This document shows positions 3,072 to 61,486 of a stretch of DNA of 64,000 bases, in pieces (the first letter of the stretch is position 1; each line of letters opens with the position of its first letter). The translations under genes were made by a program, and so were the position numbers. This DNA is from Planctomycetota bacterium (GTDB lineage Bacteria; Planctomycetota; UBA8742; UBA2392). Under the pieces are notes generated by a model that worked only from the letters and a program-made list of their open reading frames with translations, ran no database searches and was not told the origin of the DNA. The stretch lies in the NCBI GenBank assembly GCA_022071975.1, contig JAJVIO010000034.1, positions 5,853 through 69,852 on the forward strand, in the 5' to 3' direction.

Positions 3072-3307
3072 GGACGCGCCGTGGGGCAGACATCCTGTCT
3101 GCCCTGTAGGGACACGCGGCAGTGTGTCCCCCGCCGTGGGGCAGGCTGCCAGCCTGCCTGTAGTTCGTGATGTGGACCATTGGCGGCAACACGTAGGGAC
3201 ACGCGGCAGCGTGTCCCAGGCCGTGGGGCAGGCTGCCAGCCTGCCTGTAGTTCGTGATGTGGACCGGTGGCGGCAACACGTAGGGACACGCTGCCGCGTG
3301 TCCCTAC
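3068..3307. repeat. REP array: GTAG + GGGACAC..GTGTCCC hairpins in an 87-bp tandem unit (starts 3106, 3193, 3280), last copy inverted
   Basis: gtagggacacgcggcag(t/c)gtgtccc occurs at 3106 and 3193. Each is followed by a second hairpin ggcaggctgccagcctgcc. The copy at 3280-3307 has the reverse-complemented loop (gctgccgc). A degenerate copy sits at 3068-3105. Confidence 0.85.
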
Positions 3308-3376
3308 TTTCGCGGCCGTCCGCGCGGGCGAAAGGGGTCTGGCTCCGCTTGCGGTGCCTGACCCCTTTCGCCCGGC

Positions 3377-4189
3377 TCACCCCTCGGCTTTCTTAGTCCG
3401 GCCTCGCGGACGAATCGTTGATTCCAGCCCCAGCTTGCGCGCGGCGTTCTTGCGCCAGGGATCGTCACTAAACGGCGAGCCCCGGTTCACGCACTCGCGC
3501 AGCTTCGCTAGCTGCTCAGCCTCTTCTTCACGGTTCACAAAACGCAACCAAGGCTGCGGCCGCGGCGTAGGCCCCTCCACCAGCCAGTGGGCGAGCGGAA
3601 AAGGGTCAGGCTCCCCGGGGTCTGGCTCCTTTTCCGGCCGGCGCAGTTTGCCGGACGGAAAAGGTGCCTGACCCCCTCCCGAGCCCGAATACAGCCAGTC
3701 CTGGGCCTTGGCGACCATGCCCGCGCGCACGGGGTTGCGCTCGACGTAGCGCAGCACTGACAAAAGGTGCCCGCCGGGCTCGATGGGGAAGCTGCGGTAG
3801 CGCCCCTGCCAGACATGCACCGAGCCCTTGTAGTGCTTGTGATAGCGCCGCACATGGCAGGTGGCAGCCCACTGCATGAAGGCCTGCAGGTCGCCGTCGC
3901 GCCGGGGCCACAGCTCCAAATGGAAGTGGTTGGTCATCAAAACCCAACCCCGCAGGTGGATATCGAACCGCTTGCAGGCCTGCCCTGAGTTTGTCGAAGA
4001 GCCAGGGAAAGGATGCGCTCAAAGGCCGCGAAGCCTGCCAGCCGGCCTGTCCACTGAAGCTTTTGCGAAGGTGGAAGCCGAGGCGAAGGCTGGGTCTTCG
4101 GGCTTGTGGAATACGTTAGCCCGGCCGTTACCCCGGTTGATAACATGGTAACAGATGCCACCGCGGGCGGAGCGAAGAGGTCGAGCCAT
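3377..4189 (-). pseudogene. REP-associated tyrosine transposase (RAYT, Y1/IS200-like), disrupted
   Basis: From ATG 4189: MARPLRSARGGICYHVINRGNGRANVFHKPED. Downstream: LMTNHFHLELWP...WQGRYRSFPIE...RYVERNPVRAGMV...LGLESTIRPRGR. There is an in-frame TGA at 4021-4019, and a homolog-like AAFERIL segment sits in another frame, so the gene has at least two frame disruptions. Confidence 0.8.
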
Positions 4190-4241
4190 GCCAGGAAGCT
4201 ACAAACCAGCATCAAAAGGAGCAAGAAAAAGGAGCCTGACC

Positions 4242-4285
4242 CCTTTTAAGTTCTGCCTTTTAAGTTCATGACCCCTTTTAAGTTC
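4242..4285. repeat. three direct copies of CCTTTTAAGTTC
   Basis: Copies at 4242, 4256 and 4274. Copies 1 and 3 are preceded by tgacccc. The repeats lie just upstream of the RAYT pseudogene start. Confidence 0.7.
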
Positions 4286-4496
4286 AAACTTCCACTCAAC
4301 GATTTCCACTTCTGGAGGCAGAGACACGTCGTCGCAGGAGGCGACGACTGTTGCCCACAATACGGGAGGAAGGCCTACTTCAACCCTAGGGCAGGCGAGT
4401 CCGATGAGACCGGGAATACGCCCTTTGGTGCTGGTTATACCCATCCGATTTGGGAACCTTGGAACCCGATGAGCGAGTAGCGAGGAGAACGCGGCC

Positions 4497-5693: not shown

Positions 5694-5735
5694 TTTCCCT
5701 ATGCCCTATGCCCAATGCCCTAAGCCCTGCCCCAG
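5694..5735. repeat. heptamer array (core GCCC): tttccct atgccct atgccca atgccct aagccct gccccag
   Basis: Read directly. It is intergenic, between the stop of 5763-6311 and the start of 5281-5652. Confidence 0.8.
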
Positions 5736-6446: not shown

Positions 6447-6560
6447 GTTGAAAGGCGGTTTTGTCAGGATTTACAGGATGTTAGTGGACGCGGGTTTCAT
6501 GTGGCCAGGGCCATCTGGAACCCGTGTCCTCTTGAATCCTGTCCATCCTGACCAAATGCA

Positions 6561-6633
6561 GTGGGGACACGCGGCAGCGTGTCCCTACACCAATACGGAG
6601 ATGCGGCTAGGACACGCGGCGGCGTGTCCCTAC
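6561..6633. repeat. REP pair (GT(G/A)GGGACAC...GTGTCCCTAC x2)
   Basis: gtggggacacgcggcagcgtgtccctac at 6561-6588 and taggacacgcggcggcgtgtccctac at 6608-6633. The phoH stop (complement of cta 6630-6632) lies in the second copy. Confidence 0.8.
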
Positions 6634-7667
6634 TGCTTGGCCTGGCGTTGCTTGTCTGTGGTTTCGTAGGCGTCGATGATGCGCTGCACCATGTCGTCGC
6701 GCACGATGTCCGCGTTGCCGAGGCGGCAGATGCGCACGCCTTCAACGCCGTCCAGGCGGCCGATCACGTCCACCAGGCCCGATTTCTGGCCCTCGGGCAG
6801 GTCGGTCTGGCTGATGTCGCCGGTGACCACCGCTTTGCTGCGGCGGCCCAGGCGCGTCAGGAACATCAGCATCTGCTTGGGCGTGGTGTTCTGCGCTTCG
6901 TCGAGCAAGATAAACGCGCGGTCCAGCGTACGGCCGCGCATGTAGGCCAGCGGGGCGACCTCGATGACGTCGCGTTCGATGTAACGCTGGATCTGCTGCA
7001 TGGGCAGCATAGCGCCGAGCGCGTCGAAAATCGGGCGCAGGTACGGGTTCACCTTGGCCTGGTAGTCGCCGGGCAGGAAGCCGAGCTTTTCGCCGGCCTC
7101 AACAGCCGGGCGCACCAGCACCAGCTTGCTGACGTTGCCGTGGATCAGCGCCGCCACGGCCATGCTGGTGGCCAGGAAAGTCTTGCCGGTGCCGGCGGGG
7201 CCGACGCCGAATGTTACGTTGCAGGTCTTGATCGCATCGAGGTAAGCGGCCTGGCCGGGCGTCATTGGCTTGGCGCCCTGCAGGCCGAGCGGCTTGATCT
7301 CGGCGTCGGAGTCGGCCTCCGGCGCGTCGAGGCGCAGCAGCGCGCTTTCGACGTCGTTGGTGCGCAACTGCCCGTACTTGCGGACCTTTTCGATCAGCGT
7401 CAGCAGGGCGACGTAGGCATCGAGCACGCTCTGCTCGTCGCCGGCGATGCGCAGGTTGTTGTCGCGCGCGAAGATTTTGACGTCGAAGTGGCCGCGGATC
7501 ATCTTGAGGTGACGATCGCGCTCACCGAAGAGAGCGTAAGCCTCTTCTTTATCGCGCAGTCGTATGGACTTTTCCATGAAGCCGTTCGGGGAGTGGTGGT
7601 TGGAGCCGCGACGCTCGAGTGTTTTTCCCATGAGCTTTATTCTAGCCCGTGTGGCTGTTTCCGCCAC
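6630..7667 (-). CDS. phoH: PhoH-family ATPase (YbeZ-like)
   Basis: Walker A GPAGTGKTFLA, ...ILLDEAQN, and the C-terminal GDISQTDLP motif. Confidence 0.95.
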   Translation of the reverse strand: MAETATRARIKLMGKTLERRGSNHHSPNGFMEKSIRLRDKEEAYALFGERDRHLKMIRGHFDVKIFARDNNLRIAGDEQSVLDAYVALLTLIEKVRKYGQLRTNDVESALLRLDAPEADSDAEIKPLGLQGAKPMTPGQAAYLDAIKTCNVTFGVGPAGTGKTFLATSMAVAALIHGNVSKLVLVRPAVEAGEKLGFLPGDYQAKVNPYLRPIFDALGAMLPMQQIQRYIERDVIEVAPLAYMRGRTLDRAFILLDEAQNTTPKQMLMFLTRLGRRSKAVVTGDISQTDLPEGQKSGLVDVIGRLDGVEGVRICRLGNADIVRDDMVQRIIDAYETTDKQRQAKQ

Positions 7668-14750: not shown

Positions 14751-15827
14751 ATGAGCATTGAATGGCTGGAAGCGGAATCCGCGATTGACGAACGCGTGGC
14801 CCTGCAGGCCCAGCGCGAAAAGCTGGAGGCCGCCTACGACGCGAACCCCGGCGACGCCGAGGCCGCGCTGCGGCTGGTCAACGTGCTGGACCAGCTCGGC
14901 GTGCCCGCGCAGGAAATGGCCGCGCGCATCGAGCGCGCCTTTGAGGCCAACCCCAACGACCCGGCGCTGATGGCGTGGCTCGGCCAGCTGGCCTACCGCA
15001 TGGGCCAGCTCAAGCTCGCCATGCTGACCCTGAAACACGCGATCAGCCTGGACCCCGATGACACCCTGGCCAACTTCACACTCGGCCAGTGCATGCTGTA
15101 TGCGGGCACGTTCGAGGACGCCCTGCGCTACGCCAAGCGCGCCTGGGATACCGGCCAGGCCGCTTACTACCGCAAGGAAATCAGCCGCCTGTACTGCATC
15201 GCGCTGGTGCGCCTGCGCCGCTTCGACGAGGCCTACGAGTTCCAGAAAGAACAGCTGGCTGAACGGCCGGACGACAGCCAGACCGTGATCGACACCGCAG
15301 ACCTGCTGGGTGAAATGGGCCGCGACGACGAAGCCCGCAAGCTGCTGCTGAATGCGCACAACAAGAAACCGGCCGACACCGACCTGCTGTTCCGCCTGGC
15401 GGTCGCGCACTTCGAAAGCAACGACTTCGCCGGCGCGATCGAGTGGGCCGACAAGGTGCTGGCCGCCGACGCCCAGCACCTGGAGGGCTGGAACCTGCGC
15501 GCCCAGGCCAAGTTCAAGCTGGGGCTGTTCGAAAGTGCCTTGGCGGACCACGGCATGATCCTGGAGCTCAGCAAGAGCATGCCGCTGGACCGCAGCTTCG
15601 TGGCAAGCTGCTACGAGGGCATGGGGCGCAAGGCCGACGCCATCGCCGCGCTGAAACAAGGGCTGATCGAGGCCAAGGACTGGCCCGACCGTAAGCGCGC
15701 CTACCAGCAGCATCTGGAACGGCTGCAGATCGTCACGCCCGACCAGCAGAAGAAGAAACACAACCTTGGGCCGAACGACCCCTGCTGGTGCGGCAGCGGC
15801 AAGAAGCTGAAGAAGTGCCATGGGTAG
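14751..15827 (+). CDS. TPR-repeat protein with C-terminal SEC-C metal-binding motif
   Basis: Multiple TPR-like helices. C-terminus PNDPCWCGSGKKLKKCHG. Confidence 0.85.
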   Translation: MSIEWLEAESAIDERVALQAQREKLEAAYDANPGDAEAALRLVNVLDQLGVPAQEMAARIERAFEANPNDPALMAWLGQLAYRMGQLKLAMLTLKHAISLDPDDTLANFTLGQCMLYAGTFEDALRYAKRAWDTGQAAYYRKEISRLYCIALVRLRRFDEAYEFQKEQLAERPDDSQTVIDTADLLGEMGRDDEARKLLLNAHNKKPADTDLLFRLAVAHFESNDFAGAIEWADKVLAADAQHLEGWNLRAQAKFKLGLFESALADHGMILELSKSMPLDRSFVASCYEGMGRKADAIAALKQGLIEAKDWPDRKRAYQQHLERLQIVTPDQQKKKHNLGPNDPCWCGSGKKLKKCHG

Positions 15828-15925
15828 CTGTTGGCTGTTGGCTAACAGCTAACGGCTAACAGCCAATAGCTAACGGCCAGCGGCTGATAGCTAACAGCCA
15901 ACGGCTAACGGCCGATAGCGCCACG
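15828..15925. repeat. heptamer array, 13-14 units of C-N5-G (ctgttgg ctgttgg ctaacag ctaacgg ctaacag ccaatag ...)
   Basis: Read directly. Starts at the first base after the TAG stop. Confidence 0.85.
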
Positions 15926-39111: not shown

Positions 39112-39199
39112 GCCCTCGGCAGGTGTCGGTTTTCAGGGGCAGGTGTCAGGTTCTGAAGCCGACACACGCGTGCAGCAGAGGCCGGTCGGCGCGGGATGC

Positions 39200-39241
39200 C
39201 CTGTAAACTGAAACCTGTAACCTGTAACCTGAAACCTGTAG
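39200..39241. repeat. heptamer array (core CCTG): cctgtaa actgaaa cctgtaa cctgtaa cctgaaa cctgtag
   Basis: Read directly. Ends 6 nt before the yvcK ATG. Confidence 0.85.
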
Positions 39242-39247
39242 TCCAGC

Positions 39248-46488: not shown

Positions 46489-47088
46489 TTACACGTCGAA
46501 CGCGGTCGAGTACACCTGGTCGAACACCTGCAGGTAGGCGTCCACGTCCACCTTGGGATCCAAGTAGGCCTGCTGCACCAGCCCCTGCACGATCGCCACC
46601 AGGAAGCGCGCCGCGGCCTCGGGCTGAAGTTTGGAGTTCAGCCGCCCGCTGGCCTGGCGCTCGGAGATCAGCTCCGTGAGCTGGTTCACCAGCACCCGGT
46701 AGCTCTTGCGCAGGATCTCGCGCACGTCCTTGTTGTGGCGCGACTCCGACATCAGGTCGTAGTCGAGACTGTAGGCCTGCAGGTTCTTGCGCTCGCGCAG
46801 CTCTTCAAGAAAGTGCCGCACGATGCTGTGCACCGGGCGGTCCGGGTTCTTCAGCGCCGCCTTGGTGATCTCTTCCGCGTTGCGCTTGCGCGAACGCGTG
46901 GCAATCGCGCACACCAGCTCGTCCTTGCTGGGATAATAGCTGTAGCACGCCCCCGCGCTCAGCTCGGCCGCGCCGCAGATGTCGTTCATGCTGGCGCGGC
47001 CGTAGCCTTTCTTCAGGAACACTTCGACGGCCGCGTCAACGATCTGCTGACGCCGTTGCTCCTGGTGCTCGGGGCTGACTTTGGGCAT
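46489..47088 (-). CDS. TetR/AcrR-family transcriptional regulator
   Basis: RRQQIVDAAVEVFLKKGYGRASMNDICGAAELSAGACYSYYPSKDELV. Confidence 0.9.
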   Translation of the reverse strand: MPKVSPEHQEQRRQQIVDAAVEVFLKKGYGRASMNDICGAAELSAGACYSYYPSKDELVCAIATRSRKRNAEEITKAALKNPDRPVHSIVRHFLEELRERKNLQAYSLDYDLMSESRHNKDVREILRKSYRVLVNQLTELISERQASGRLNSKLQPEAAARFLVAIVQGLVQQAYLDPKVDVDAYLQVFDQVYSTAFDV

Positions 47089-47352: not shown

Positions 47353-47398
47353 AAAAACGAACGCTCACTCGTTTTTATAAACGAACGGTTATTCGTTT
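47353..47398. promoter_or_regulatory. two tandem AAACGA-N-TCGTTT palindromes, candidate TetR operators
   Basis: aaaaacga-acgctcac-tcgttttt at 47353-47376 and aaacgaa-cggtta-ttcgttt at 47379-47398. They lie 20-65 nt upstream of the minus-strand operon start. Confidence 0.5.
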
Positions 47399-47457
47399 TT
47401 GTTTCAGGATGCTTCAGACCGGAAAGATTTTTTTTCTGACAGAACGGACGGGAGTGG

Positions 47458-48498: not shown

Positions 48499-49467
48499 CT
48501 ATTCCCGGGCCCATGACAGCATCAGCCAGGCGCCGCCGTTGGGGTAGATTTCGAACTCCTTGAAGCCGGAGGGGAACAGCACTGTGTCGCCGGCCTTCAG
48601 TCTTGCGGGCTGCAGGTTGTCGCGCTCGCGCCCGGCCAGCTCGCAGGCGCCCTGCAGGCAGGTGAACAGGCTGAAGCCGGGCCAGTCTTTCTCGAGCAGC
48701 CGCCCCTTCTTGACGCGTAAAGAGCGCACGCCGAAGGGCCCGTCCGGCTGCAACAGCAGGTCGTCGCCCGCGGTCTCCAGTATCGGCGGCGGCTGCAGGT
48801 CAAAGCGCGCGGCCGCAAGCCCCGCCTGCACGTGCTTTTCGCGCGGCTTGTCGCGTGGGAAGTCCCACAGCCGGAACGTTGTCGCGCAGTTCTGCTGCAC
48901 TTCCAGCAGCGCCAGTCCGCCCCCCACCGCGTGCACCATGCCTGCTTCATTATAGATGTAGTCGCCGGCTTTCACCGGCCGCGCGTTCAGCAGCGCGGGT
49001 GGGTCGCCGCCCTGCAGGGCCTGCTGAAACTGCTGCGGCGTGACGCCCGACTTCAGGCCCTGGTAGATCACGGCATCCGGCGCCGCGTCCAGCACGATCC
49101 AGCACTCGGACTTGCCGCGCCTCACCAGGCGCTCGTTCTCGCGCTCGTCGCTTGGGTGGTCCTGGATGCTGAGAGGCTGCGCGGTGTCGAGCAGCTTTAC
49201 GGCCAGGGGGAAATCCGGCAGCTCGTTGCCATCCGCCAGCTCACCCAGAAGCTCGGCGCGGTGGCTGCCCATCACTTCGTGGAGGGTCTTGCCGCGCCAC
49301 ACACCGTTGGCCACCACGCTGCACTGGCCGGGCAGGTCCGCCAGCTCGATCGATTCGCCGGTGCCGGGCGGCAGCTCGTCCGCCAGCTCGGGGTACAGGC
49401 GGGCAAGGCGTGTGTCGGCCCAGGGCTTGCGCACGGCGATGCGGTAGAAGCGCAGGGGGTAGCTCAT
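48499..49467 (-). CDS. manA: type I phosphomannose isomerase (cupin)
   Basis: LSIQDHPSD and EAGMVHAVGGG motifs. 322 aa. Confidence 0.8.
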   Translation of the reverse strand: MSYPLRFYRIAVRKPWADTRLARLYPELADELPPGTGESIELADLPGQCSVVANGVWRGKTLHEVMGSHRAELLGELADGNELPDFPLAVKLLDTAQPLSIQDHPSDERENERLVRRGKSECWIVLDAAPDAVIYQGLKSGVTPQQFQQALQGGDPPALLNARPVKAGDYIYNEAGMVHAVGGGLALLEVQQNCATTFRLWDFPRDKPREKHVQAGLAAARFDLQPPPILETAGDDLLLQPDGPFGVRSLRVKKGRLLEKDWPGFSLFTCLQGACELAGRERDNLQPARLKAGDTVLFPSGFKEFEIYPNGGAWLMLSWARE

Positions 49468-49525
49468 GTCCTCAAGTTAGCGTTCCCCGTATGGCAAGGC
49501 AAAGCGCACTCGCTAAGGTGTAGGC

Positions 49526-50152
49526 GTGACGACGCCCGAACCCAAACCGGTGTCCGAAGTCCCGCTGGTCTCAAGCCAGCCGGCGCCGCGCAGCGGCAAC
49601 AACCTGCTGCTGCTGTTCATGCTGGGCTGCCTGGTGGCGGTGGCTGGCGGCGCAACCTGGATCTGGCTCGACTCCAACCGGCCCAAGCATGACCCCCACG
49701 TCACCCAATGGCCGCGCGAAGGCCACCCCGGCGAGTTCGACTTCGGCGAGGCGCGCGGAGATTACAAGGCCGCGCAGGCCCGCATGCAGAAGCTGGCAGA
49801 CGCGCTGCTCGCCTACCGTGAGGGTCCCATGGGAGGCGGTGTGCGCTGGCCCTCGAGCTTTGAGGAACTGCAGATGGCGGGTTTAGTGGAGCAGGACTTC
49901 GACTTTACAGGCCTGCTTTCCGGCAAGCCGATCGCCTTCCAGCCGGAAATGCCGATCGGCCACGACCCGGAGCGCTGGGTACTGTGCCACGACATCGAGA
50001 TCGGCTGGCGCCGCCAGCAGGGCACAGGCTACGCCATGAAAGGCCCGCGCGCGGCCGTGGTGATGCTGGCGGACGGCACGGTCAAGCTGCTGGAAGGCGA
50101 CGAGCTGGAGCTCTATGGCGGGCTGAATCAGCAGGTGGGCGCGGGGCGATAG
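49526..50152 (+). CDS. hypothetical protein with N-terminal TM anchor
   Basis: [27 protein letters not shown] start. Confidence 0.55.
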
Positions 50153-50154
50153 GC

Positions 50155-50355
50155 ATGAAGATCACCGTGAACGGCACCGAGCGCGAAGTGGCGGAAGGCA
50201 CCACGATCGCTCAGTTGATCGAGCAGTTGAAGCTGCGCACGGACCGCATCGCCACGGAGCGCAACCTTGATGTGGTGCCCAAGGCCAAGTACGCGGAAAC
50301 GCGCCTGGCGGATGGGGACAAGCTGGAGATCGTTACCTTTGTAGGCGGCGGATAG
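50155..50355 (+). CDS. thiS: sulfur carrier protein ThiS
   Basis: [12 protein letters not shown]...[13 protein letters not shown] with the C-terminal GG. 66 aa. Confidence 0.9.
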
Positions 50356-50360
50356 GCGGA

Positions 50361-50465
50361 CAACAGCAAATGAACAATAACCAATTACCAATTTTCAATG
50401 AGCTGCCCCGGTCGCGGGCGCCAATTGGAAATTGGTTATTGGTTATTGGTAATTCGCTGTTCGAA
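50361..50465. repeat. heptamer arrays in dyad symmetry (CAATNNN x4-6 ... ATTGGNN x4) around a GC core
   Basis: Left arm: caacagc aaatgaa caataac caattac caatttt caatgag. Core: ctgccccggtcgcgggcgcc. Right arm: attggaa attggtt attggtt attggta attcgct gttcgaa. Confidence 0.85.
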
Positions 50466-50482
50466 CTGGATTGGAATCGCGA

Positions 50483-51316
50483 ATGACCGTGACGGCATCC
50501 GAACTCGATACTCCGCTGATCGTCGGCGACTACACGTTCTCCTCGCGCCTGCTGGTCGGCACCGGCAAGTACGCCTCCTTCCAGCTCATGCGCGACTGCC
50601 TGGCCGCCAGCGGCACCGAGTGCGTCACCGTGGCCGTGCGTCGCGTGAAGCTGGACGGCCCCAAAGAAGAGAACCTGCTCAGCTACATCGACGAATCGAA
50701 GTACAAAATCCTGCCCAACACGGCCGGCTGCTTCACGGCCGAGGATGCGATCCGCACCGCGCACCTTTCGCGCGAGGCGCTGAACACCCCGCTTGTGAAG
50801 CTGGAGGTGCTGGCGGACCCCAAGACCCTGCTGCCCGAGCCGGTCGGCACGCTGGAGGCCTGCGCGCGTCTGGTGAAAGAAGGCTTTACCGTGCTGGTCT
50901 ACACCAGCGACGACCCGGTGATGGCGCGTAGACTGGCGGACCTGGGCGTGGCCAGCGTGATGCCCGCGGGCTCGCCCATCGGCAGCGGGCAGGGCGTGTT
51001 GAACCCGAACAACATCCGCATCATCCTCGAGACCGTGCGCGAGCAGTACAAGCTGCCGATCATCGTGGACGCGGGCGTGGGCACGGCCAGCGACGTCACC
51101 ATCGCCATGGAACTGGGCGCCGACGGCGTGCTGCTGAACACCGGCATCGCCCATGCGCAGGACCCGCTGCGCATGGCGGTCGCCATGAAAGCCGGCATTG
51201 AGGCCGGGCGCCTGGCCTACCTGGCCGGCCGCATCCCGCGCAAGCTGTACGCCAACGCAAGCAGCCCCATGGAAGGCCGCATTGCCAGCGTCAAGGAAGG
51301 GATTCCCGGCGAGTAG
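50483..51316 (+). CDS. thiG: thiazole synthase ThiG
   Basis: [27 protein letters not shown] and VDAG.G. An alternative TTG start at 50471 is possible. Confidence 0.95.
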
Positions 51317-51324
51317 CGGGTAAG

Positions 51325-51735
51325 TTACTTCCAGGGGTCATAGGTCCCGAAGTTCCACAGGTGGCCTTCCGGGTCGAGGCAGGAGTAGCCGCGGCCGCCG
51401 TAATCTTCGTCCGTCAGCGGGTAGACCACCCGGGCGCCGGCTTTCATGGCCCGGTCGTGGTGGGCGTCGGCGTCTTTCACAATGATGTAGACGCTCTGCG
51501 TGCCTACTCCGCCCGCCTTTTCCGGGGTGGACTGCAGCTTGCCGAAGGCGTCGTCGCGAACGGTGCCCAGCATGATCATGGAGTTGCCGAAGCGCAGTTG
51601 GGCGTGTGCGATGGTGTCGTCGTCACCGGGCACGACCAGCTGCTTTTCAAATCCAAATGCCCGGCACAGCCACTCGATCGCCTGATTGGCGTCCCTGTAG
51701 CGCAGTGTGGGGATAATCACGGCTCCGTTGCTCAT
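51325..51735 (-). CDS. VOC/glyoxalase-family protein (PhnB-like)
   Basis: PTLRYRDANQAIEWLCRAFGF...DPEGHLWNFGTYDPW. Confidence 0.9.
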   Translation of the reverse strand: MSNGAVIIPTLRYRDANQAIEWLCRAFGFEKQLVVPGDDDTIAHAQLRFGNSMIMLGTVRDDAFGKLQSTPEKAGGVGTQSVYIIVKDADAHHDRAMKAGARVVYPLTDEDYGGRGYSCLDPEGHLWNFGTYDPWK

Positions 51736-61400: not shown

Positions 61401-61486
61401 GAGAGGTCAGAGGTTAGAGGCCGGAAGTCAGGGACGCCATAGCCGAAAGCACCCTGACCTCTGATCCCTGATAGCTGACCTCTGAA
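61401..61486. repeat. entire 86-nt spacer = 12 heptamers in dyad symmetry (NAGAGGN ... ACCTCTG)
   Basis: gagaggt cagaggt tagaggc cggaagt cagggac gccatag ccgaaag caccctg acctctg atccctg atagctg acctctg. Confidence 0.85.

Follow-up and report, generated by a model that had tools for sequence, protein, structure and literature searches.

Heptanucleotide repeats are described as the most abundant long simple sequence repeats (SSRs) in most bacterial genomes, an abundance ascribed to slippage of the polymerase (Mrazek 2007, as summarized in PMC4679880 and PMC4692102). In Xanthomonas and Nostoc, heptamer arrays occur in inverted arrangement, with variation of sequence and length at a conserved intergenic site (PMC4692102). 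Another class of intergenic palindrome, the repetitive extragenic palindromic (REP) sequences, is 20-40 nt long, carries a GTAG head, occurs in hundreds of near-identical copies and is mobilized by RAYT transposases (PMC5927463). Here we analyze a stretch of 64 kb ("the window") from one uncultured planctomycete genome of 64% GC (GenBank assembly GCA_022071975.1, contig JAJVIO010000034.1, positions 5,853 to 69,852 of the forward strand), in which the spacer between the genes thiS and thiG is occupied by a long imperfect hairpin assembled from heptamers. Judged from comparison among related loci, this element is a hypervariable repeat palindrome and not a conserved regulator of the thiamine operon. 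Its general kind is already known; what is new here is the phylum of the host and a heptamer unit that differs from locus to locus, and no report of such heptamer arrays in Planctomycetota was found in the literature searched.

Structure of the thiS-thiG spacer

A preliminary description of this DNA had presented the spacer (50356-50482, 127 nt) as a long imperfect hairpin built of heptamers, and we recovered the register exactly as claimed. The left arm (50361-50402, plus strand) comprises six heptamers, caacagc, aaatgaa, caataac, caattac, caatttt and caatgag (unit CAATWAC), as delineated by Tandem Repeats Finder (TRF) and by the inverted repeat. The right arm (50424-50465, plus strand), which mirrors it, comprises attggaa, attggtt, attggtt, attggta, attcgct and gttcgaa, and is paired up to 50461. 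Between them lies a GC-rich, non-repetitive core (50403-50422, plus strand; ctgccccggtcgcgggcgcc), which makes up the hairpin tip and folds into its own small GC stem, and whose 5' edge bears a GAGCTGC motif found, on comparison of copies, also in the type-B copy (L086) considered below. TRF assigned period 7 to 50375-50393 (2.7 copies) and to 50423-50454 (4.6 copies). Self-identity at a lag of 7 rises to 0.77 against a background of 0.26, and values of at least 0.74 are reached at only four places in the 64 kb; among the other lags that are not a multiple of 3, a scan of the same DNA gave none above 0.60 save lag 14 (0.74), itself a multiple of 7.

Taken as 50362-50410 and 50413-50461, the arms are 49 nt long and 80% complementary, forming the longest inverted repeat in the window. 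The spacer folded as RNA has a minimum free energy (MFE) of -51.4 kcal/mol (z = -5.9), a stability attained by none of 200 shuffled sequences; the fold of the minus strand is -50.9, and the spacer folded as DNA gives -31.1 (z = -5.9). Eight of the 45 ATTGG/CCAAT pentamers in the window fall within these 127 nt. The stem begins 7 nt past the thiS stop codon, and its arms are AT-rich, at about 46% GC in a genome of 64% GC. The mirrored-heptamer hairpin is confirmed as real and far beyond chance, and the earlier view of the spacer as a large, strongly structured insert holds.

The flanking genes are well delimited. Upstream, thiS (50155-50355, plus strand) encodes 66 amino acids ending in GG before the stop and matches Pfam ThiS at E = 6e-18; its extent follows the list of open reading frames (ORFs) and gene calls in contigs that encode the identical protein. 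Downstream, thiG (50483-51316, plus strand) encodes 277 amino acids (Pfam ThiG, E = 1e-105). Two starts had been entertained for thiG, and we place it at the ATG at 50483 because the alignment of relatives begins at residue 1 there, the TTG at 50471 being unlikely. An unannotated ORF of 208 amino acids (orf208) ends 2 nt before thiS, so that the unit reads orf208-thiS-[127 nt]-thiG. A small ORF at 50398-50931 and antisense ORFs across the spacer, which overlap thiG, were set aside as high-GC artefacts. Wastewater and comparable sources have yielded the nearest relatives of the genome, all of them Planctomycetota not in culture; closed or near-closed sequences among relatives are JAOSKM010000001 (2.45 Mb), JADJRK010000001 (4.1 Mb) and JADKGX010000001 (2.7 Mb). 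The top match to its ThiG, 96% identical, lies in JAOSKM010000001; an exact-protein look-up with the ThiG of the window gave no record, and a metagenome scan with the same protein returned two close relatives only, L091 (which matches L001) and L092 (related loci are designated here by L numbers).

Variation between strains at one site

Contigs encoding a ThiS protein identical to that of the window fall into three groups by their hairpin, represented by L087, L081 and L086. The first carries the hairpin of the window with 2 substitutions, and the second a variant 87% identical to it, the differences affecting the loop as well as each arm. The third, type B, has a spacer of 105 nt with arms of CAAAATT/AATTTTG, within flanks that remain close to those of the window (thiS DNA 95.5% and thiG DNA 95% identical); the sequence common to the two hairpins is confined to a 5' GCAA(A)TGAA and the loop motif GAGCTGC. 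The site is homologous in the two lineages, its arms having been rebuilt. Yet another type (C), of 77 nt and built on GGATTCA/TGAATCC, is present in L001, L091 and eight more contigs (L191-L198), which come from different samples and are all identical; thiS DNA in L001 is 95% identical to that of the window. L002 retains a decayed GGATTCA hairpin of about -20 kcal/mol, and farther relatives have still other units at the same site, GATTGTG in L014 and CAATGGT in L015. Across these loci the arms have undergone complete remodelling between lineages that are 92-95% identical in their flanking genes.

Within type A, to which the hairpin of the window belongs, copies differ by uncompensated substitutions that weaken the stem, with folds of -51.4, -47.8 and -45.1 kcal/mol. 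Between strains, change at the sites compared takes the form of substitution, replacement of a whole type, or presence and absence only. The ThiS protein allele of L001 also stands beside a variant of the window-type hairpin in L199, which shows recombination among these lineages. Compared with 49526-50482 of the window, L081 is itself a recombination mosaic, in which the gene for the 208-aa protein is 99.7%, thiS 93% and the hairpin 87% identical.

The contigs of these populations derive from activated-sludge and bioreactor samples, among them runs SRR18671895, SRR34985854 and DRR438484 and JGI 3300028486. Many short-read (Logan) contigs stop 34-36 nt past the thiS stop codon, within the left arm (L082-L085, L088-L090 and L203-L204). 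The heptamer palindrome evidently breaks de Bruijn-graph assemblies, and such junctions would therefore be under-represented in metagenome assemblies.

Insertion into a short native junction

Spacer length was compared across the 15 closest genomes (L001-L015). It is 11-15 nt in L004, L006, L007, L008 and L010, 24-29 nt in L003, L011 and L012, and 40-64 nt in L002, L005, L009 and L013; lengths of 77-109 nt occur only in L001, L014 and L015. A hairpin is present in window-type loci and in L086, L001, L014 and L015, decayed in L002, and absent from L003, L004 and L006-L012. Over a broader set of 128 planctomycete loci in which thiS and thiG lie side by side, drawn from L001-L080 and L091-L170, the two genes are fused in 28, and the median spacer of the other 100 is about 50 nt. 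The supposition that this junction is normally tight was thus sound, near-relative spacers being mostly 11-29 nt. As a separate observation, the 28 loci lack a stop codon between thiS and thiG, which indicates that a substantial minority of planctomycetes make ThiS and ThiG as one fused protein.

The 3' boundary of the insertion can be read against the hairpin-less relatives L007 and L010, whose junction is TAG-AACTGGAA-(6 nt)-ATG, compared with TAG-gcggac-[hairpin]-cg-AACTGGATTGGAATCGCGA-ATG in the window. The motif AACTGGA (50465) matches the entire short spacer of these relatives. From the two junctions it follows that the native thiG leader (50462-50482, plus strand) is retained intact 3' of the insertion, and that about 106 nt were added straight after the thiS stop; the leader is unpaired in the MFE structure. 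Within it, an ATTGGAA at 50470 is identical to the top unit of the right arm (50424), and lies one base off the ancestral AACTGGA. These comparisons show the element to be an insertion relative to near relatives, with an ancestral spacer that was short (about 14 nt).

The same leader bears on the statement that thiG has no obvious Shine-Dalgarno (SD) sequence. A strong one is indeed lacking, but a weak SD-like GGAA lies at -10 to -7 of thiG, inside the leader ATTGGAA, and both motif and spacing are identical in L007 and L010; the seeming absence is therefore the normal state of the clade and not a property of the insert.

Heptamer arrays elsewhere in the window and in other planctomycetes

TRF found five heptamer arrays in the window, all intergenic and with five unrelated units. 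Beside that of thiS-thiG, one fills the spacer between hpf and a cofD-like gene (39112-39247, plus strand), where a CCTGWAA array (39200-39240) and a degenerate CAGGTKT arm pair with each other and enclose a GC-rich core of about 45 nt (sense MFE -53.6). The element is absent from two contigs encoding an identical HPF protein, in which the spacer is 23 nt, and the empty site has CCAGGAA where the array unit is CCTGWAA. Between a Ser/Thr-kinase gene and tmk (61401-61486, minus strand) is a GAGGTCA/TGACCTC hairpin (sense MFE -41.7) whose first stem base is 3 nt past the kinase stop and whose last is 1 nt before the tmk ATG; among the same strains it differs at 5-7 of 86 positions, and the tmk coding sequence at 1-10 of 723. 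An element following a gene with a SEC-C motif (15825-15915, plus strand) consists of about 12 self-complementary GCTGTTG/GCTAACR heptamers (MFE -53.6), starting on the stop codon of that gene and lying upstream of a tRNA. The fifth (5697-5728, no strand assigned) is a direct array of CCCTATG in 4.6 copies, without an inverted partner, and lies some 45 nt ahead of the start codon of a gene on the minus strand.

A tandem-repeat survey of 1.19 Mb surrounding thiG, mostly from planctomycetes, places these arrays in a wider setting. Period 7 is the commonest tandem period, with 48 arrays compared with 28, 21, 17, 4 and 4 for periods 6, 8, 9, 5 and 10, respectively. A reverse-complement partner lies within 150 nt of 19 of the 48 heptamer arrays, whereas reversed or complemented controls gave none and arrays of period 6 or 9 had none. 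A crude ORF call put 31 of the 48 outside coding sequence, compared with 0-4 for periods 6, 9 and 12, whose arrays are nearly all coding. The survey shows the thiS-thiG element to belong, by the sequence features it shares, to a class of often-mirrored heptamer arrays in non-coding junctions across Planctomycetota.

Members of this class at other thiS-thiG junctions need not fold. Spacers of Phycisphaerae contain direct, non-folding arrays, of CCGAACC in L034, CCCGAAA in L132 and ATTGCTR (nine copies) in L060. The Phycisphaeraceae loci L034, L057 and L132 have C/A-rich direct arrays (CCGAACC, CCCGATA and five copies of CCCGAAA, respectively) predicted to be unstructured, which in L034 and L057 reach, or nearly reach, the thiG start codon, a position resembling that of the Beggiatoaceae TAACTGA arrays upstream of start codons (PMC4679880). 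Other thiS-thiG spacers hold hairpins that are not, or only partly, heptamer-based: a nearly perfect, GC-rich stem some 40 bp long in L072 (1341-1458; -80 kcal/mol), two tandem GC hairpins in L055 and L056 (5887-5998), and a hairpin of GTGTGAGA octamers in L028 (5838-5962).

Searches for known elements, and other repeats of the window

At gathering score, Rfam 15 matched nothing in the whole window other than a tRNA, and gave no thiamine pyrophosphate (TPP) riboswitch; at E up to 10 over 49300-50700, the best matches to the hairpin were generic hairpin models (E about 0.5, far below gathering). A consensus scan of 49300-51500 returned no terminator-like and no promoter-like (sigma-70-like) site, and the sequence 3' of the stem, cgaactggattgg, has no T-run. 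Searches of the window and of some 1.3 Mb of related loci for additional copies of the array, the cores or the sister elements yielded only same-locus copies in other strains and short chance matches, the ATTGGTT array having no other match in the 64 kb. Over this extent of DNA, sequence searches show that the thiS-thiG element is not a copy of a dispersed element. The stem base lacks GTAG. An integron attC site was considered and rejected by eye, since GTTCGAA does not conform to GTTRRRY, the core site, neither thiS nor thiG is a cassette, and heptamer arrays are not known from attC sites.

Several unrelated repeats were noted in passing. A REP-like palindrome that carries a GTAG head, GTAGGGACACGCGGCAGCGTGTCCC(TAC), is dispersed, occurring at 3106-3307 and 6558-6636, and the family may also be written GTAGGGACACGC...GCGTGTCCCTAC; it forms part of an 87-nt tandem repeat (2.3 copies, 3106-3304), whose unit holds a second hairpin, GGGGCAGGCTGCCAGCCTGCC, and it recurs 3 kb away. 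This genome therefore has elements of REP type, and they look unlike the thiS-thiG element. A second palindrome family, based on GGGGTCTGGCTCC / GGTGCCTGACCCC, is found at 3325-3374, 3617-3675 and 4237-4286, near three tandem copies of an 18-nt unit, TGACCCCTTTTAAGTTCA, which has a TGACCCC core in common with it. In AT-rich intergenic DNA at 47353-47400, a 24-nt unit (AAACGAACGCTCACTCGTTTTTAT, 1.9 copies), palindromic in each copy (AAACGA...TCGTTT), lies about 265 nt upstream of a candidate TetR-type gene (46489-47088, minus strand; assigned by N-terminal sequence only) and resembles a putative operator pair.

Origin and tolerance of the element

We regard the thiS-thiG element as probably a locus-specific heptanucleotide-repeat palindrome of the long-SSR (STRR-like) kind, inserted after the thiS stop and tolerated in the operon junction. 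A local origin is suggested because ATTGGAA, a unit of the array, is found again in the native thiG leader, and the unit of the hpf-cofD array likewise resembles the sequence of its own empty site. A heptamer of the leader (AACTGGA/ATTGGAA) could have seeded the array, which would then have been amplified by replication slippage. Fold-back or template-switch copying might subsequently have mirrored the array and kept both arms alike, followed by drift, decay or episodic remodelling. Quasi-palindrome correction, or fold-back template switching in replication, is an established mutational mechanism. Such copying would account for the complementarity of the arms and for variant units at mirrored positions, such as GCAAAAT in both arms of L086, without invoking selection; it is a mechanism rather than an element family, and for these arrays a candidate only. 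In the thiS-thiG mRNA the element should form a stem-loop some 46 bp long. Such folding would loop the insert out, so that, in the predicted structure, the path from stop to start amounts to 6 + 21 nt and the region of the weak GGAA is single-stranded. The looped-out insert and free leader are the probable reason why a junction elsewhere short or fused tolerates the element. Protection of thiS from 3'-5' exonucleases, or looser translational coupling, would if present be a side effect and not a conserved form of thiamine control. By analogy with malE-malF, a barrier to 3'-5' exonucleases at this junction is possible, as is, from the modelled fold, an incidental effect of the hairpin on expression.

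This account has difficulties of its own. Heptamer arrays occupy 10 of the 100 unfused thiS-thiG junctions, compared with about 1.4-4% of other junctions; the first count is uncorrected for shared ancestry, and the background rate is rough, the crude ORF caller having found 29 of about 100 thiS-thiG junctions and being unreliable in high-GC DNA. A neutral model explains the excess only through a few old arrays that persist at one orthologous site; as thiS-thiG junctions are orthologous, a small number of such arrays could yield it. The sense fold is stabler than the antisense in 10 of 11 elements, cases that are not independent and among which differences are often small; this would fit a constraint at the RNA level, and strand-biased mutation gives the same result. 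We saw no copy-number polymorphism within types: full-length copies measure 127 nt for type A, 77 nt for type C, 136 nt for hpf-cofD and 86 nt for tmk. With lengths so constant, slippage must be infrequent at present and remodelling episodic. The mirroring of variant units at matching positions in the two arms of L086, together with the near-perfect stems of L014 and L015, could be due to selection on pairing rather than to templated copying. Nor does the account explain where the GC-rich cores came from, and the evidence covers only 64 kb of this genome.

Alternative explanations

Among the alternatives, the one that best withstands the evidence, although we consider it unlikely, is that of a selected intercistronic RNA hairpin which sets the ThiS:ThiG ratio by an exonuclease block stabilizing thiS, by uncoupled translation of thiG, or by both. 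On such a model the sequence is free to change because only the structure matters; accordingly, the persistence of a hairpin at one site through at least three unrelated units, with further ones in L014 and L015, would be as expected, as would the over-representation of arrays at this junction, the greater stability of the sense fold, and a leader whose GGAA stays unpaired in the predicted fold. The protective structure of malE-malF provides a precedent (PMC5927463). The model has more trouble with the absence of the hairpin from most near relatives and the fusion of the genes at some loci, with the decay of the L002 copy, and with substitutions in type A that destabilize the stem and go uncompensated. 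Nor does it explain why the same spacer in Phycisphaerae has arrays that do not fold, or why the same class of element stands at the unrelated hpf-cofD and kinase-tmk junctions, where it is present or absent among near-identical strains. The preliminary description had proposed regulation of this sort. Its premises of a large structured insert in a tight junction survive, with malE-malF as a parallel, but a device dedicated to thiS:thiG stoichiometry is unsupported: the comparison with relatives, made at the sequence level, found spacers built of unrelated heptamers (L086, L001), short ones, and the decayed one of L002, alongside the uncompensated changes and the sister elements elsewhere.

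Less probable still, in our estimation, is a combination in which the hairpins are free in sequence and kept in structure, their heptamer arms being rewritten by slippage and fold-back and selected at preferred junctions, thiS-thiG among them, to tune the output of neighbouring genes. If true, it would account together for the thiS-thiG excess, the mirrored variant units and the stabler sense fold; a variant in which a dedicated enzyme rewrites the arms is less likely.

We think it very unlikely that the spacer offers repeated target sites to a protein, for instance a translational regulator, that binds RNA or DNA sequence-specifically and reads ATTGG/CCAAT at 7-nt spacing. ATTGG does occur five times at exactly that spacing and once in the thiG leader, ATTG-type units are found in other thiS-thiG spacer arrays (L014, L019, L060 and L154), and the same proposal has been made for the Beggiatoaceae TAACTGA repeats upstream of start codons (PMC4679880). 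Strains with identical ThiS and near-identical flanks nevertheless use CAAAATT or GGATTCA, the other arrays of the window have the unrelated units GGCTAAC, CCTGTAA, GAGGTCA and CCCTATG, and the motifs would be base-paired in the folded RNA.

Slightly weaker again is the notion of a terminator or attenuator between the genes, with thiG expressed by conditional read-through or from a promoter in an AT-rich arm; a very stable hairpin with AT-rich arms directly after a stop codon invites it, yet no T-run follows the stem, the scan of 49300-51500 produced neither terminator-like nor promoter-like sites, the only evident promoter for thiG would be lost, and the sister hairpin at kinase-tmk adjoins the ATG of an essential gene. 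Least credible is transposition of a mobile miniature element, whether like a REP or bacterial interspersed mosaic element (BIME) or like a miniature inverted-repeat transposable element (MITE), into the junction: the imperfect intergenic palindrome, the presence and absence among strains at a sister locus and the genuine dispersed palindrome family of the window recall one, but no second copy was found in the window or in about 1.3 Mb of related loci, each locus has its own unit resembling local native sequence, and distinct terminal inverted repeats, a target-site duplication and a GTAG head are all missing.

Significance and comparison with known systems

The element has little import for thiamine biology, as the thiS-thiG pair works without it in sister lineages. 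Its value lies in offering a clean natural case of heptamer-repeat behaviour, with three unrelated hairpins at one orthologous site between genes 92-95% identical. At a sister site the empty form makes the boundaries of insertion directly readable, and the repeat unit can be traced to a native leader; a three-type site, an empty form and a traceable unit together make the origin of the arrays, and the complementarity of their arms, open to study. The thiS-thiG excess and the three-type polymorphism are most worth following. On the practical side, palindromes of this sort can mislead searches for regulatory RNAs in high-GC genomes.

Set beside described systems, the element resembles Rho-independent terminators in having a stable stem-loop past a stop codon, and differs from them in its lack of a U-tract, its far longer and AT-rich stem, and its location inside an operon. 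With REP/BIME sequences and the malE-malF hairpin of Escherichia coli (PMC5927463) it shares an imperfect palindrome at a co-directional operon junction, just past a stop codon; unlike REPs, it is about 100 nt long, unique in sequence, built of heptamers and without GTAG. The likeness to malE-malF goes further, in that a stable structure lies at the 3' end of the upstream cistron of two co-directional genes with no promoter or terminator between them; by analogy, folding of the element within the polycistronic mRNA is to be expected and could form a barrier to 3'-5' exonucleases.

The closest affinity is with the long SSRs, exemplified by the cyanobacterial STRR sequences, GGGAATC of Xanthomonas and GGGGAYT of Nostoc (PMC4692102), TAACTGA of Beggiatoaceae (PMC4679880) and GATAGRA of Chloroflexus (PMC6749651). 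There are differences: STRR1-3, GGGAATC and TAACTGA represent few heptamers at many loci, whereas each locus here, within the 64 kb seen, has its own strain-variable unit; the variation in unit number between strains expected from slippage is not seen; and about 40% of the planctomycete arrays are mirrored to give a single long hairpin whose core is GC-rich. The shared features are nonetheless extensive. Like the long SSRs, these arrays consist of tandem 7-nt units in 3-10 copies, are intergenic and often beside start or stop codons, favour period 7 over neighbouring periods, vary in length and sequence among close relatives at one intergenic site, and in some cases occur as inverted pairs able to form stem-loops.

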